A stretch of 64,000 nt of DNA from Acutalibacteraceae bacterium. GTDB lineage: Bacteria; Bacillota; Clostridia; Oscillospirales; CAG-272. Each line of letters starts with the position of its first letter. The first letter of the stretch is position 1. Position numbers and translations under genes: made by a program. The stretch is from the NCBI GenBank assembly GCA_963618495.1, contig CAVESF010000009.1, positions 179-64,178 of the forward strand. The letters are read 5' to 3'. A model generated the notes under the pieces. The model was not told the origin of the DNA. It made no database searches and saw only the letters and a list, made by a program, of their open reading frames with translations. Shown here one piece after another: positions 3,597-63,716 of this stretch.

Positions 3597-4105
3597 TATT
3601 TTTCTCCCTCCGGTATCGCCGTATTGCGGAAAAGTCCCGCCTCGGCAAGGATTTTCTCGCAGGTATCGTTCATATATTTTTCGTCCTCTTCGCTTATCTC
3701 GTGGTCATAGCCGAGCAGATGCAGCATGGAATGCACCGTGAGAAACGCTATCTCGCGCATGGTGCTGTGTCCGTATTCGCGCGCCTGCCGCTCCGCCGTC
3801 TCGAGCGAAATGACGATATCACCCAGTGCCGCTATGCCCTCGGTTATATCCTCAGGCTCGGGCGTGCCGCTTGTCAGCGGGAAGGAAAGCACATCCGTGG
3901 GCTTGTCCTTGCCGCGATACTCGAGATTCATCGCGTGAATCTCGGAATCGAGCACAAATGTGACGGAGATTTCCGCACCGTATGCGAATTTTTCATTTTC
4001 CAGCGTGCGCTTTATCACATCGCGCACCGTCTTTTTCGTCTCGGTCGGTATCGCGGGAACGCCATCGCCGCGCCCGAAATAAATTTTATTTCTCATTTTT
4101 GTCAT
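3596..4105 (-). CDS. ybeY: rRNA maturation RNase YbeY
   Basis: HSMLHLLGYDH zinc-binding motif; 169 aa; lies between phoH and era as in Bacillus. Confidence 0.9.
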   Translation of the reverse strand: MTKMRNKIYFGRGDGVPAIPTETKKTVRDVIKRTLENEKFAYGAEISVTFVLDSEIHAMNLEYRGKDKPTDVLSFPLTSGTPEPEDITEGIAALGDIVISLETAERQAREYGHSTMREIAFLTVHSMLHLLGYDHEISEEDEKYMNDTCEKILAEAGLFRNTAIPEGEK

Positions 4106-5105
4106 TCCTCTTTATGCGGTATTTGTCGCGCTTTTCGCGCTTGTCCTTGTCGTATTTCTCATATGCGAGAATTATCTTCTGCACGAGCCTGTGGCGCACG
4201 ACATCGCGCTCCGTCAGGCGTTGCACCGCTATATCCTCTATGCCGTCGAGAATCTTCACCGCCTCCGCAAGACCGCTGCGCTTGCCGTCAGGCAGGTCAG
4301 TCTGAGTGAGGTCGCCCGTCACCACCGCCTTGGAATTGAATCCAAGACGCGTGAGAAACATTTTCATCTGCTCGGGCGTGGTATTCTGCGCCTCATCAAG
4401 GATGATGAAACTATCGTCAAGCGTTCTGCCGCGCATATATGCGAGCGGTGCTATCTCTATTGCTCCCCGCTCGATATATTTCTGATAAGCCTCGCCGAAC
4501 ATCTCATAGAGCGCATCGTGAAGCGGGCGCAGATAAGGGTCTATTTTCGTTTGCAGGTCGCCGGGGAGAAATCCGAGCTTCTCGCCCGCTTCGACTGCGG
4601 GGCGCGTGAGAATAATGCGCGAAAATTCCTTGTTTCTCAGTGCCGCGCTCGCCACGGCAACGGCAAGAAAGGTCTTGCCCGTTCCCGCGGGACCGACGCC
4701 CATGACTATCGTATTTTTCCTTATCGCGTCGATATATTTCTTCTGCCCGACGGTTTTCGCCCGTATCGGCTTGCCCTTTGTCGTCACGCAGACGCAGTCG
4801 GAATCGAATTTCTCAGGTTCCTCGCCGCTTTTGAGCAGTCCCGCGATGTATTCCGTATTCTGCTCGCCTATCTCGGTGCCGAGCTTCGCCATGCCGAGCA
4901 GAGTTTCCACGGTTTTCGCGGCGAGACGGACATTCTCCTGCTCTTCGCCGCGGATAATGATGCAGTCGCCCGCCGTTGTTTCGCTTATTCTGTTCCCGAT
5001 GGAAACGGAAAATATCTTTTCGATTATCTCCGCGTTTTTGTCGTAGTTTCCGAAGATTGCCGCAGTTTCTTCGGCGCTCTCCGTTGTAACGGTTTTCTCG
5101 TACAT
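4086..5105 (-). CDS. phoH: PhoH-family ATPase
   Basis: GPAGTGKTFLAVA Walker A and ILDEAQN Walker B; conserved yqfD-phoH-ybeY order. Confidence 0.9.
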   Translation of the reverse strand: MYEKTVTTESAEETAAIFGNYDKNAEIIEKIFSVSIGNRISETTAGDCIIIRGEEQENVRLAAKTVETLLGMAKLGTEIGEQNTEYIAGLLKSGEEPEKFDSDCVCVTTKGKPIRAKTVGQKKYIDAIRKNTIVMGVGPAGTGKTFLAVAVASAALRNKEFSRIILTRPAVEAGEKLGFLPGDLQTKIDPYLRPLHDALYEMFGEAYQKYIERGAIEIAPLAYMRGRTLDDSFIILDEAQNTTPEQMKMFLTRLGFNSKAVVTGDLTQTDLPDGKRSGLAEAVKILDGIEDIAVQRLTERDVVRHRLVQKIILAYEKYDKDKREKRDKYRIKRNDKNEK

Positions 5106-13299: not shown

Positions 13300-13675
13300 C
13301 TCAACGCACTGACCAAAGTTTCGCACACCATAATTAAAGTTTTCGCTCACTTTTATTAAAGTTTCGGTCAAGCCTTTTCAAAGGCTTGACCGAGCCGCCG
13401 GTGTCGGCGGTCGCGCTCCGCAGAGCGCGAAAGCTCTATAACGGCGCTTTTCTTTTTTGTAGCTTTTTCTTTTGCGGCGGCGATGGCAAAAGAAAAAGCG
13501 GATGAAAGATTTGATTTCTTGTTTTGACTGTTGACGGGACTTTGGTTCTCGAGTAGGGCGGCGGCTTGCTGCCGCAGTGTAGAATCATAAAGAAACTTTT
13601 CCTTTTCTCGTACTTTTGTGTGACCAAAAGTACCAAAAGTCATATAAGAGGCGTTCCACCTCTTATATATCTCCC
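13300..13675 (+). repeat. Intergenic repeat locus R2 (iterated TTAAAGTTTCG motif, T module, long H hairpin, X double hairpin)
   Basis: Shares modules with loci R3-R7 on direct comparison. Confidence 0.85.
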
Positions 13676-13677
13676 CC

Positions 13678-13828
13678 CTGTCGCCTCGCGGCGACCAGTG
13701 CGAGCAAAGTGCCCCGACCGTCCCGCCATAGCATAGCCACAGCTACAGGTTCGAAACGCCCCCGCGCCGACTCGGATTCACTGCTGTGCCATGTCAGGCT
13801 ATAGCGAACCTCGCGGTTGATATTTTGG
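13678..13828 (+). repeat. Z module copy 1 (151 nt, candidate structured RNA or hairpin-ended mobile module)
   Basis: Roughly 88-90 percent identical by eye to the reverse complement of 51554-51704. Confidence 0.8.
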
Positions 13829-14034
13829 GTGCTGAAACTGGGAAGTTTGTGCGCTGACGGGACAAAGCATATATTCTGTTTTTCGCAGAAGTTACAGTTT
13901 TAACCCCGCCTCCCTGCAGGGGAATTGACCGTCTCGCGCAAGGAAAAAAGTACTACAAATCATCATTTCCCTATCCACCCTCAAAAACAAAAATATACTT
14001 TCACGATTCCGCAAGGAATCCACAGGTGAATATC

Positions 14035-38790: not shown

Positions 38791-38898
38791 ACGAGATGCT
38801 AAAAAAGTGCAGACCGAAAAAGTGAAAGGGTGTGTAACTTTTTTGGTAAAAGAGGTTTGTTAAAGCTAAAACTGTTCAGTAATATCGATTTTAAGGAA

Positions 38899-38934
38899 GG
38901 CAGGAAATCCGAGAGAGGTTTTCCTGCCTTTTAT
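38899..38934 (+). terminator. Intrinsic terminator inside repeat copy 1
   Basis: GGCAGGAAA / TTTCCTGCC 9 bp stem followed by TTTTATC. Confidence 0.75.
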
Positions 38935-39143
38935 CATATTCACTTTTTCTCTCGCCGAAATCCTTTTCTGCCGTACAGATGTACGGCGACGAAGCGGATA
39001 TTCAACGATTCTGCGCATTTTTATCTATCTCGTTACACGAGATGCTAAAAAAGTGCAGACCGAAAAAGTGAAAGGTGTGTAACTTTTTTGGTAAAAGAGG
39101 TTTGTTAAAGCTAAAACTGTTCAGTAATATCGATTTTAAGGAA

Positions 39144-39179
39144 GGCAGGAAATCCGAGAGAGGTTTTCCTGCCTTTTAT
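39144..39179 (+). terminator. Identical intrinsic terminator inside repeat copy 2; a mutated version lies in copy 3 at 39389-39424
   Basis: Same hairpin as copy 1. Copy 3 carries C-to-A in the 3' arm. Confidence 0.7.
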
Positions 39180-39544
39180 CATATTCACTTTTTCTCTCGC
39201 CGAAATCCTTTTCTGCCGTACAGATGTACGGCGACGAAGCGGATATTCAACGATTCTGCGCATTTTTATCTATCTCGTTACACGAGATGCTAAAAAAGTG
39301 CAGACCGAAAAAGTGAAAGGTGTGTAACTTTTTTGGTAAAAGAGGTTTGTTAAAGCTAAAACTGTTCAGTAATATCGATTTTAAGGAAGGCAGGAAATCC
39401 GAGAGGGGTTTTCCTGCATTTTATCATATTCACTTTTTCTCTCGTCGAAATCCTTTTCTGCCGTACATTCGCTGTTCCTTTTTCTTGCCGCATCTCATCA
39501 AGCCAAGAGTGCTTTTTTCTTTTCCACAAATATTCAAAAAACCG

Positions 39545-39573
39545 TTGACAAACGCACATTCTTTTGATATAAT
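39545..39573 (+). promoter_or_regulatory. Consensus sigma-A promoter for tRNA-Thr
   Basis: TTGACA, 17 nt spacer, TATAAT; the -10 ends 12 nt before the tRNA 5' end. Confidence 0.8.
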
Positions 39574-39585
39574 AATAAAGCATTC

Positions 39586-39661
39586 GCTGATATGGCTCAG
39601 CAGGTAGAGCACATCCTTGGTAAGGATGAGGTCACCGGTTCGAATCCGGTTATCAGCTCCA
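39586..39661 (+). tRNA. tRNA-Thr (anticodon GGT), CCA encoded
   Basis: Hand-folded cloverleaf: acceptor GCTGATA/TATCAGC, D stem GCTC/GAGC, anticodon stem CATCC/GGATG with loop TTGGTAA, T stem ACCGG/CCGGT with loop TTCGAAT. Confidence 0.9.
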
Positions 39662-44910: not shown

Positions 44911-45470
44911 CCGTCAGCGCACATATCACATTCACGCCCGCCATGCATTTTCAGCGGGCGTGCAGACAATGCGTGCACGAATCTGCTCGGCTATCTCGTG
45001 TGTTATGTTCGCACGCGTGGTATGGCTGAAGCTGCGGAGAATGGCAAAACCGCCGATTTTTGCTTTGTCTGTTTGTCGCACGCACTCGCCACGCATGGCT
45101 TGCGTGACTAACTCGTGCACGCGGGAAGAGTTTGCAAAGAGAGGGGAAAGCTCTCTTTGATGACTTTTGGTACTTTTCGTCACGGAAAAGTACGAGAGAA
45201 GAAAAGTTACTTTATGTTTCTGCGCGGGAGACCACTGGTCTTCCCTGCCATGCAAAATCCAAGTATAGTCAACAGCAAAAATAAAAGACTGAATCCCTCT
45301 CCGCTTTTTCTTTTGACATCGCTGCCGCAAAAGAAAAAGCTATCAAAAAGAAAACGCCGAAATCAGAATTTTGCGCTCTGCGGAGCGCGACAAAGGCTCC
45401 GCGCCTTTGATGACGCCGCCTTTTTCAAAAGGCGTGCGAAAACTTTAATTGCGGGCGTGCGAAAGCAAAA
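44911..45470 (-). repeat. Intergenic repeat locus R4 (Y, X, H and T modules)
   Basis: 44911-45215 matches the reverse complement of 51196-51506. 45290-45465 matches the H+T units of R2, R3 and R7. Confidence 0.85.
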
Positions 45471-51195: not shown

Positions 51196-51553
51196 AGAAT
51201 CATAAAGAAACTCTTCTTTTATTGTACTTTTGTATGACCAAAAGTACCAAAAGTCATATAAGAGAGCGTTCCTCTCTCTTATATATCTCTTCCCGCGTGC
51301 ACGAGTTAGTCGCACGAGCCGTGCGTGGCGAGTGCGTGCGACAAGGGGCAAAGCAAAAGTAGGCAGTTTAGCTACTCTCCACAGCTTCAGCCATACCACG
51401 CGTGCGAACATAGCACACGAGGAAGCCGAGCAGATTCGTGCACGCATTGCCTGCACGCCCGCATAATAGGGTTGGCGGGCGTGAATCCACCACCTACGCT
51501 GACGGGACTATCAAAATAAACCCTATCTCGCTATGTTCGCACACAGACACGCA
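51196..51553 (+). repeat. Intergenic repeat locus R5, left part (X double hairpin plus about 245 nt Y module)
   Basis: X matches 13590-13675 in the same orientation. Y matches 44911-45170 in inverted orientation. Confidence 0.85.
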
Positions 51554-51704
51554 CCAAAATCTCAACCGCGAGGTTCGCCATAGCCCGACATGGCACAGCA
51601 GTGAATCCGAGTCGGCGCTTAAGCGTTTCGAACCTGTAGCCGCGGTTATGCCGTAGTTGGACGGTCGGGGCACTTTGTTCGCACTGGTCGCCGCGAGGCG
51701 ACAG
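51554..51704 (-). repeat. Z module copy 2 (inverted relative to copy 1)
   Basis: See 13678-13828. Confidence 0.8.
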
Positions 51705-51860
51705 AAAGAGTTTAAAAGAGGGATTGACACATATGCGGAGCATGTGTGTCGGCGTCGCCGAGACGGGAGTTAATACTTTCCTCTTTTTGTCCTTTTCGTT
51801 CTTTTCGGACAAGCGAAAAGAACATCAAAAGAAAAGTTTCTTTTATGTATTTATGAAAGA
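51705..51860 (+). repeat. Intergenic repeat locus R5, right part (W module)
   Basis: ACACATATGC...GTCGGCGTCGCCGAGAC...GGGAGTTAA is shared with 57630-57680 and 61185-61250. Confidence 0.7.
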
Positions 51861-51976: not shown

Positions 51977-52005
51977 TTGACAAAATATAAAAAATATGGT
52001 ATAAT
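51977..52005 (+). promoter_or_regulatory. Consensus extended -10 promoter upstream of the AT-rich islet
   Basis: TTGACA, 17 nt spacer, TGG-TATAAT. Confidence 0.7.
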
Positions 52006-52129: not shown

Positions 52130-52795
52130 ATGAAAAAATTTTATTCGATTATCATTACTATCGCATTTCTGATCACGTCTGTTTTCTTCACTAATGCATA
52201 CGCTACAGATATTGAAACACTGAGCTTAGATACATCTTTTGTAGTCGGAGTGTATAATTATTCACAGGTTCCCTCTACATCGGGTGAAACATATTTTATT
52301 GGTTCGCGTAAAGTAGGAAGATTCACTTATGAGGTCAACCGCTATTATGGAGATTGGTATGCCCTTCTTAACTTGGATCTTTCGACACCTTGCTTTAAGG
52401 GATCTTCCGCCATGGAATTAACTCAAACGATAGGTCGGACATATTCGGCTCAATTGGCATATGAGTTTTCACATGCTGTAGGCGGCACGGTAAATGCGGA
52501 AATTTTTGAAATAACTTCTTCCATTACAAATAGCGTAGCTGTTACATTTCAAGTATCATTTGAAATGGCAAATAGCGTCTCATATCAGCTGGACGATACA
52601 AAACCTGTTGGATATTATAAAATTGGTGTTTGTCATGATTTATATCGTCATAGTGTTCGCCAATATATTGAATCGGCAGAATATGCTTCTTTAACAGATA
52701 CAGGCGTTTATTATGAGATGCCTACTCCAGAGGGCATTGCTTATTATGCACTTTTGTACAGCACTTCAAGCGGTTCTGGATATAAAAAATATTAA
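52130..52795 (+). CDS. Secreted hypothetical protein (signal peptide, beta-rich, Ser/Thr/Tyr-rich)
   Basis: 221 aa with signal peptide ...FFTNAYA-TD and a GGGG RBS-like stretch upstream. I recognise no family. Confidence 0.6.
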   Translation: MKKFYSIIITIAFLITSVFFTNAYATDIETLSLDTSFVVGVYNYSQVPSTSGETYFIGSRKVGRFTYEVNRYYGDWYALLNLDLSTPCFKGSSAMELTQTIGRTYSAQLAYEFSHAVGGTVNAEIFEITSSITNSVAVTFQVSFEMANSVSYQLDDTKPVGYYKIGVCHDLYRHSVRQYIESAEYASLTDTGVYYEMPTPEGIAYYALLYSTSSGSGYKKY

Positions 52796-53966: not shown

Positions 53967-53995
53967 TTGACAAAACCGTATAGTGTGTGTATAAT
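53967..53995 (+). promoter_or_regulatory. Consensus sigma-A promoter of the rplJ-rplL operon
   Basis: TTGACA, 17 nt spacer, TATAAT. Confidence 0.8.
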
Positions 53996-53996
53996 A

Positions 53997-54151
53997 TATA
54001 GGCAATCCGAAGACAGCAGGTTTTTGTAAAAGCTGAGCTATCCTGCCGAGGAGAGATTTATAAAGCGATTTATTGTCTTTCCGTATGCTTCATTGCGGAA
54101 AGATTTTTTATTTTCAAGCTTGGCTTTATTATTACGAAAGGTGGTGTAATT
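53997..54151 (+). promoter_or_regulatory. Ribosomal protein L10 leader (autoregulatory attenuator)
   Basis: About 155 nt of 5' UTR between the promoter and rplJ, containing a terminator hairpin (54076-54114: TCTTTCCG/CGGAAAGA plus T-run). Position and layout match the Firmicute L10 leader. Confidence 0.55.
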
Positions 54152-63642: not shown

Positions 63643-63687
63643 ACAAACGAATAAGATGGGCTGGTCTCCGGACCCGGGTCCACCTGC

Positions 63688-63716
63688 GGCGGGGATGTTC
63701 CCCGCCATTTTTATTT
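63688..63716 (+). terminator. Terminator-like hairpin inside the DUF3800 5' leader
   Basis: GGCGGGG ATGTT CCCCGCC followed by ATTTTTATTT, ending a few nt before the AAAGGAG RBS. Confidence 0.6.

Follow-up and report, generated by a model that had tools for sequence, protein, structure and literature searches.

The DNA analysed here is a stretch of 64,000 nucleotides (nt), referred to below as the window (G000:C9:179-64178), from the genome assembly G000, which comprises 1.9 Mb in 52 contigs, is 96% complete and belongs to the genus Candidatus Apopatosoma. It contains two copies of a 151-nt sequence, Z, in opposite orientations, and this raises the question of whether Z is a genetic element in its own right or part of something larger. 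The initial annotation of the window had put Z forward as a candidate non-autonomous element or structured RNA. One part of that proposal stands, since Z is protein-free, multi-copy DNA that turns over between strains, while its independence, its assignment to IS200/IS605 and its nature as an RNA were not borne out. As set out below, Z is probably the left third of the 417-nt core of a mosaic repeat about 0.6 kb long with hairpin arms, which behaves like mobile or recombining DNA and is found in intergenic clusters of nested hairpin modules. The descriptive part of this reading, namely the architecture and the turnover of the repeat, is firmly founded, and the mechanism is attached to it loosely.

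The Z pair

Copy 1 of Z is located at 13678-13828 on the plus strand (locus 1) and copy 2 at 51554-51704 on the minus strand (locus 2). The alignment of copy 1 with the reverse complement of 51554-51704 comprised 151 columns with no gaps and 135 identities, the 16 differences falling at positions 27, 47, 48, 50, 52, 53, 59, 62, 64, 83-86, 119, 126 and 144. Eight of them lie within positions 47-64, and 83-86 form a block of CCCC versus TTAA, so that the description of an ungapped inverted pair with about 16 substitutions, a clustered block and a CCCC/TTAA exchange agrees with the alignment. The pair was returned by the repeat search as the longest inverted repeat of the window, 89% complementary, and the second copy was recovered in the whole-genome search with E = 8.9e-53, far above chance.

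The small structures that had been pointed out in Z were all found as described. A 5′ hairpin, GTCGCC-TCGC-GGCGAC, occupies positions 3-18 (13680-13695 in copy 1) and a 3′ hairpin, AACC-TCGC-GGTT, positions 130-141 (13807-13818), both containing CCTCGCGG. It is also possible to draw the nested ATAGCC/GGCTAT and ACAGC/GCTGT helices, and copy 2 has CGCGGC where copy 1 has CACAGC. Coding potential in Z was ruled out by the indels of 1 and 2 nt that separate its copies.

Z as the left third of a repeat core

The context of Z was assessed with 103 distinct full-length copies drawn from G000, three sister species and gut metagenomes. When copies were aligned together with their flanks, the homology extended past Z on both sides. 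On the left, Z was preceded directly by hairpin 2 and the pyrimidine tail of an arm sequence, X, in 103 of 103 full-length copies with enough flank. On the right, among 115 copies, the next module was Y1 in 84, a sequence termed P in 16, a small insert of the W type (see below) in 11 and something else in four. The module map of G000, in which modules are 50-160 nt long, revealed a recurring unit of about 610 nt with the order X(+)-Z-Y1-Y2-Y3-X(-), whose core, Z-Y1-Y2-Y3, is non-coding and 417 nt in length. The full architecture was observed at four loci of G000: C5:64552-65166, C7:22719-23209, C9:51378-51965 (window 51200-51787) and C19:12219-12801. This genome also contains half elements (Y2-Y3-X′) and forms of the type X-Z-P.

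The initial annotation had regarded Z as an independent unit, a view to be given up if Z should turn out to be a fragment of a longer element, and such a fragment is what was found: X precedes every full copy with sufficient flank and Y1 follows 84 of 115, and Z is therefore not an independent unit. The observation on which that view had been based was that Z follows X at locus 1 and is apart from it at locus 2. The first half is correct; at locus 2, a diverged X arm directly precedes Z. This Z-side arm (51705-51847, minus strand) had been overlooked because it is of a diverged, GTTC type (GTTCTTTTC-GCTTGTCC-GAAAAGAAC, GAAAAGGACA, hairpin 2) and is interrupted by a 49-nt W module (51723-51771) that sits in the hairpin-2 loop; this arm also occurs in uninterrupted form. 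The X recognised earlier, at 51200-51287 on the plus strand, is the opposite arm of the same element, of the GTAC type and inverted relative to the Z-side arm, as seen in the repeat search and the module map.

According to the module map, the remaining core modules of locus 2 all lie on the minus strand. Y1 (51506-51553) holds a second GTGCGAACATAGCGAG, which is paralogous to Z positions 21-36. Y2 (51349-51505) begins with CCGTCAGCG, a recurrent inter-module junction, and includes GCTATGTTCGCAC, which is predicted to pair with the GTGCGAACA stretches of Z and Y1. Y3 (51288-51348) consists of a hairpin, GTCGCACG..CGTGCGAC, followed by TAACTCG. At locus 1, Z is followed by the P end GTGCTGAAACTGGGAAGTTTGTGCGCTGACGGGAC (13829-13863, plus strand), the alternative right neighbour of Z, which terminates in GCGCTGACGG, the reverse complement of the Y2 start. 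Outside the X arm of this locus, the outer modules U (13330-13404) and T (13405-13520), both on the plus strand, belong to the same mosaic cluster; U is present in 12 copies in G000, T in 25 and X in about 37, and the order U-T-X recurs. A half element without Z is found at 44930-45216 on the plus strand, comprising positions 20-157 of Y2, Y3 and an inverted X arm.

A subfamily of Z that lacks the 5′ CCTCGCGG hairpin and starts with CAAACAAYCATCGCCCTCCGGTGCGAACATAGCGAG was noted at G000:C4:70916-71046 and L071:6215-6667. The apparently split Z copies of genome G002 were considered as traces of a longer parent element and discarded, their gaps being runs of N without inserts.

Architecture of the X arms

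The X arm consists, in this order, of an outer arm starting with CATAAAGAAAC, a palindromic core GTACTTTTG-nnTGAC-CAAAAGTAC (9 + 6 + 9 nt), a third copy of the 9-mer (CAAAAGTCA), hairpin 2 (AAGAGG..CCTCTT) and a tail formed by a short pyrimidine run. In the arm of locus 1 (13585-13677, plus strand), the outer arm CATAAAGAAAC... extends over 13585-13609, the core GTACTTTTG-TGTGAC-CAAAAGTAC over 13610-13633, the third repeat CAAAAGTCAT over 13634-13643, hairpin 2 (ATAAGAGG..CCTCTTAT) over 13644-13666 and the pyrimidine tail over 13667-13677. The stem of the core was perfectly complementary in about 307 of about 320 X copies, over six stem types that combine GTAC, GTTC or GCGC with G-C, C-G or T-A closing pairs, and chimeras amounted to a handful. 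Complementarity across six stem types indicates that the palindrome is actively maintained.

Among 41 full elements, the arm spacers were inverted in all of the 37 that could be scored, and the two arms of an element differed in stem type in 39, the Z side being mostly GTTC and the Y3 side GTAC or GCGC. The arms are inverted and of different stem types, and therefore do not represent a duplicated target; the explanation of the arm core as a duplicated palindromic target, which would place the cores in direct orientation, was rejected on these two grounds. Solo X palindromes, in which two outer arms surround one core, were also found. Two further proposals for the arm were discarded by eye: a small open reading frame starting from its outward ATG (GGAAAAGTTTCTTTATG), as the downstream frames lack conservation and run through a hairpin with compensatory variation, and a promoter reading from the arm into Z, as its –10 element is not kept among copies.

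The W module itself (TAACTCCCGTCTCGGCGACGCCGAC...GTCAAT) is a two-hairpin sequence about 49 nt long, which has about 25 matches in G000 and is inserted in hairpin loops of other modules. It was also observed at G000 C7:140-221, and in the metagenome contig L146 (847-1119) about six units follow one another head to tail with a period of 49 nt.

Distribution

Nine Z matches were found in G000, seven of them near full length, and each of three sister genomes contained at least 20; two other genomes of the same genus, G004 and G005, were free of Z, and G004 carried no element at all. No BLAST match to Z was found in 36 other genera, and a covariance model of Z had no match in 149 other genomes of the family, representing 96 other genera, its matches being confined to the genus. 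Similarly, a 25-mer from the 5′ end of Z occurred in three of 185,579 species representatives, all of them metagenome-assembled genomes (MAGs) from the gut assigned to Candidatus Apopatosoma or labelled 'uncultured Ruminococcus/Eubacteriales'. The X arm was likewise confined to the genus, except for one weak match of 42 nt. A phage or plasmid origin was rejected, as blastn searches of the phage and plasmid collections gave no match in either. Moreover, a metagenome scan recovered more than 120 further Z stretches, and the labelled records among these were human-gut assemblies. The Z repeat is thus specific to Candidatus Apopatosoma, a genus of human-gut Clostridia.

DNA turnover between strains and species

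The comparison of orthologous sites demonstrated that the repeat is polymorphic in its presence. At locus 1, the intergenic spacer measures 815 nt in G000 and about 30 nt in the sister species G001, where the site is empty, and the orthologous site of G002 carries a complete element whose Z points the other way. Similarly, Z is missing in L154 at the C19a locus. Among 15 loci at which both flanks could be matched in at least two independent contigs, Z was present in both orientations at five. For example, positions 83-623 of the C5 locus match positions 731-212 of L173 in reverse while the flanks match directly, and the end points of the reversed segment lie inside the arms. The flipped alleles differed by 10-19%, compared with 1-12% for their flanks, and carried different arm types and extra modules. 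In the comparison of contigs L132 and L139, the flanks were 98.5-99.3% identical and the repeat cluster was completely rearranged; L175 and L194 are a further pair of contigs with two alleles of one locus. The orientation differences therefore look like replacement or re-insertion at a hot spot, and not like a simple switch.

The nested insertions were precise: W is placed in the hairpin-2 loop, a W-type module directly after CCTCGCGG in the 3′ hairpin of Z, and another module within the arm core. The mean identity of Z copies was 87.3% within the genome and 86.7% between genomes, and this equality argues against a recent burst. The orthologous C5 element in G003 was only 78% identical, compared with 95% for its flank, and such copies are therefore not vertically inherited. 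The synteny between G000 and G001 also breaks at the C5 element. As a related observation, the flanks of this element (L003, G000:C5:63424-66572) are placed in G001 on two separate, non-terminal regions of contigs C1 and C8, each of which adjoins a copy of the element, a layout suggestive of a rearrangement whose breakpoint is at the repeat.

Alternative explanations

The initial annotation had likened Z to elements derived from IS200/IS605. On this proposal, Z would be a hairpin-ended non-autonomous element (a palindrome-associated transposable element, PATE) that a Y1 transposase moves in single-stranded form. The sole feature fitting this proposal is the pair of subterminal hairpins with TCGC loops on the same strand, in direct and not inverted arrangement, and the 3′ hairpin does end about 10 nt before the real breakpoint at 151-155. 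However, no match to Y1_Tnp (PF01797) or to the TnpB zinc ribbon (PF07282) was found in the 96% complete G000; intact Y1 genes occur in the genus only in the Z-free genomes G004 and G005, G003 has two fragments, and none of these lies near X, Z or Y modules. Furthermore, Z was never found away from an X arm, and hence never as an independent insertion, the bases preceding it vary (CCCC, TTTC, CTTC, ACCC, CCTT) where a fixed target tetranucleotide would be expected, the complete unit carries long inverted arms of about 95 nt, and no HEARO or IS605-orfB RNA was matched by Rfam at Z. An IS200/IS605 affiliation is thus largely refuted, and its probability is minimal. The other proposal, that Z is a small structured RNA, can be extended to the whole core as a structured non-coding RNA read from a single strand and terminated at the hairpin-2 stem-loops of the arms, its invariant blocks being functional RNA sequence and its variable blocks either tolerated or specificity-determining. 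In its favour, Z has 84 invariant and 67 variable columns, and the variable sites are so clustered that only one of 5000 shuffles was as extreme, as measured on 20 copies gathered without pattern bias. Hairpin 2 together with the T-rich run scores as terminator-like when read outward, both subfamilies retain a long-range helix between Z 21-29 and Y2, and a single compensatory pair between the subfamilies (CG in 11, UA in 6) is located in a helix in Y. The changes within the inner helix (61-66/106-111) are mostly transitions, and these preserve G-U pairing on the plus strand alone; by our own count this applies to five of six polymorphic sites, which is not significant. Several results oppose this reading. 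The scan of both Z copies with Rfam 15 gave nothing overlapping Z, either at gathering scores over the whole window, where tRNA, the L10 leader and DUF3800-XI were the only matches, or at E values up to 10 at both loci. RNAalifold on 19 Z copies returned no compensatory change in any of 35 predicted pairs and a covariation term of -0.45 kcal/mol. The nested helices and three small hairpins pair in 94% of cells, a figure to be read against the 237-285 of 500 shuffles that reached every measure, and the outer helix is broken at one position in 8 of 19 copies and at another in 12 of 19. The 103 copies gave no compensatory signal either, the only pair with types mixed to a sizeable extent (119/125) varying independently on each side. 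The top mutual-information pairs are linked block variants and not base pairs. Covariation in Z was no better than background. The fold z-scores were ordinary (Z, -0.62, -1.17, -0.58 and -1.07; core, -1.38 and -1.56), with the two strands about equal, and the two window copies gave different minimum-energy folds. Finally, no σ70-like promoter was found within the core, the orientation of Z relative to neighbouring genes was random (20/17/14/18 over four classes), and the sister subfamily has unrelated sequence in place of Z positions from about 55 to 151. An RNA function for Z or the core is therefore considered unlikely. More specific RNA identities, namely a group I or II intron, a ribozyme, a HEARO or omega-RNA and a tRNA-like element, were rejected for want of any Rfam match or tRNA call.

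Two further explanations concern the repeat as a whole. In one of them, X-core-X′ would be an invertible switch, operated by a site-specific recombinase on the arm cores, whose 9-bp inverted arms, asymmetric 6-nt spacer and extra direct repeat resemble the geometry of recombinase core sites. The inverted repeats that bound the unit, the finding that 5 of 15 shared loci have Z in either orientation, the end points of the C5 inversion inside the arms and a chimeric arm core (GTAC...GCGC) are consistent with such a switch. Against it, the flipped alleles are not one stretch of DNA in two orientations, as they differ in sequence, arm type and module content as described above; in addition, the core has no promoter, no recombinase tracks the repeat, and many copies are cut or one-armed. 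A switch is accordingly very improbable. Somewhat less improbable, yet doubtful, is the explanation that the copies are decaying, immobile relics and that the strain differences result from homologous recombination and deletion among old repeats. The similar identities within and between genomes, with no sign of a recent burst, the many incomplete copies and the synteny break between G000 and G001 at an element would all be expected from relics, whereas the rearrangement of a cluster between contigs with 99% identical flanks, the precise insertion of small modules in hairpins, and the invariant blocks and maintained arm palindromes, which contrast with neutral decay, would not.

Possible mechanism of repeat movement

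For the preferred reading of a mobile or recombining mosaic repeat, the observed architecture and turnover would be explained by a putative enzyme acting in trans on hairpin or palindromic DNA, which would move the modules. The palindromic arm cores (9 + 6 + 9 nt) and the CCGTCAGCG junction might then serve as recombination sites at which they are shuffled. Under this scheme, both CCTCGCGG hairpins and the invariant blocks of Z would be recognition or structural sites and not the ends of an element of its own.

Several results weigh against this reading. No mobilising enzyme accompanies the repeat: Y1 transposases are missing from G000, G001 and G002 and represented by two fragments in G003, and IS110-type transposases are absent from the whole genus. 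Of the tyrosine and serine recombinases that the genus does have, none tracks the repeat; G001, the genome richest in elements, has no tyrosine recombinase match, and a 196-aa resolvase is found in G000 only. A dispersed repeat longer than 1 kb, which could be a parent element with the same ends, was not found in G000, which is weak evidence of absence, since insertion sequences are frequently missing from MAGs. No clear target-site duplication was apparent; the outer ends of four full copies are ragged and carry no direct repeat. The terminal inverted repeats typical of miniature inverted-repeat transposable elements (MITEs) are present, with X and X′ inverted in 37 of 37 scorable cases, but the two stem types within an element are unequal in 39 of 41. 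The unit may therefore be a tail-to-tail fusion of two half elements at the CCGTCAGCG junction, and not one transposon bounded by terminal inverted repeats. The 84 invariant columns of Z and the clustering of its variable sites (1 of 5000 shuffles) also point to a sequence constraint beyond that of plain selfish DNA. Lastly, all copies come from short-read metagenome assemblies, and the swapped or flipped alleles could include chimeric joins through repeats. Plain ambiguity of the assembler about orientation is unlikely, because the exact matches between arms look short by eye.

In the search for a moving agent, an IS110-type bridge-RNA element was rejected, as no DEDD transposase was found anywhere in the genus, and sequences of about 530 nt that recur in the vicinity of W modules (C13, C36, C5), considered as insertion sequences, proved to be paralogous lipoprotein genes. 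The arm-flanked genes at G000:C4:2575-3576 were judged by eye not to represent a parent element, since they encode a small protein and an XRE-type membrane protein, with nothing transposase-like. In this two-gene cassette, a 122-aa protein and a 206-aa membrane protein with an XRE-type helix-turn-helix are placed between inverted arms (1947-2516 and 3740-4305) of about 570 nt, which are 84% identical and built of U-T-X-Y3-Y2 modules. The 196-aa resolvase/invertase is encoded at G000:C26:29097-29501, while the Resolvase-domain proteins of the other genus genomes have at least 233 aa and mostly more than 500 aa. As for G001, a 90% complete MAG, no PF00589 match was obtained at E <= 1e-5, compared with 2-10 in each of the other genus members, which may reflect an assembly gap.

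A more speculative possibility, to which a very low probability is given, is that the core might act as a mobile RNA of a guide-like or bridge-like kind, or as a scaffold of single-stranded DNA, whose invariant blocks would bind a hairpin-targeting recombinase and whose clustered hypervariable blocks (Z 19-20, 30-39, 47-65 and 83-86) would set its specificity. If true, such a guide-like core would account for insertion into hairpins and for the swapping of copies at fixed intergenic sites.

Relation to known repeats and significance

BOX elements of Streptococcus pneumoniae are modular boxA-boxB(n)-boxC repeats of 100-300 nt with three module types, and to our knowledge no enzyme that mobilises them has been reported. 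The Z repeat resembles them in being non-coding, intergenic and multi-copy, in its ordered modules in varying combinations, in its hairpins and in its restriction to a narrow Firmicutes taxon. In contrast, its unit of about 610 nt, its arms of about 95 nt with two hairpins each, its 417-nt core and the nesting of smaller modules set it apart by description. Correia/NEMIS of Neisseria and RUP of S. pneumoniae are bacterial MITEs with long inverted ends, with which the Z repeat shares a length below 1 kb, the absence of coding sequence, inverted ends, presence/absence polymorphism and the possibility of forming long hairpins. Unlike these, no target-site duplication or parent insertion sequence was seen for it, and its arm subtypes differ in 39 of 41 elements. 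The likeness to PATEs and omega-RNAs concerns Z alone, with its two same-loop hairpins on one strand, whereas the genome of the Z repeat has neither the transposase nor the nuclease, Z is never positionally autonomous, and the unit has inverted arms. The SDR of Nostoc, which Elhai et al. in 2008 reportedly found to be modules of tens of bases inserted into hairpins and other repeats, resemble only the 49-nt W module and not Z, and both taxon and sequence differ.

REP, BIME and REPIN sequences of Proteobacteria (PMC2817692) form an intergenic palindromic mosaic of alternating orientation, with fast turnover. Their REP units measure 20-40 nt and go together with RAYT (Y1) transposases. The Z repeat shares with them the palindromic modules, the alternating orientation, the intergenic position and the fast turnover; its modules are far longer than REPs, and the Y1 transposase is lacking in G000, G001 and G002 and fragmentary in G003. 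No description of the Z repeat was found in the literature searched, and it is apparently undescribed; Z is a fragment of this new and large form of mosaic or MITE-like repeat.

As a fragment, Z alone has little significance, and the parent repeat is the more interesting object. It reshapes intergenic DNA faster than point mutation, breaks synteny and exhibits a hairpin-targeted nesting of modules. It also disrupts short-read assemblies, many of its copies being placed at contig ends. Moreover, the agent that moves it could reveal a new hairpin-directed system of DNA mobility in Clostridia.

Other features of the window

Just outside the repeat of locus 2, a perfect σ70 consensus promoter (TTGACA, 17 nt, TG-TATAAT) was noted at 51977-52005, upstream of a gene starting at 52130 that is without an orthologue in the other five genus genomes. 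The ribosomal protein L10 leader at 53989-54118 (Rfam, 65 bits) is ordinary, and the DUF3800-XI RNA motif at 63657-63703 scored 53.8 bits against a gathering score of 37.8. A tandem repeat with a 245-nt period, composed of two identical units and one unit of 70% identity, occupies 38826-39560, directly upstream of tRNA-Thr(GGT) (39586-39661), and a relative of it is present at G000:C13:8629-9412.

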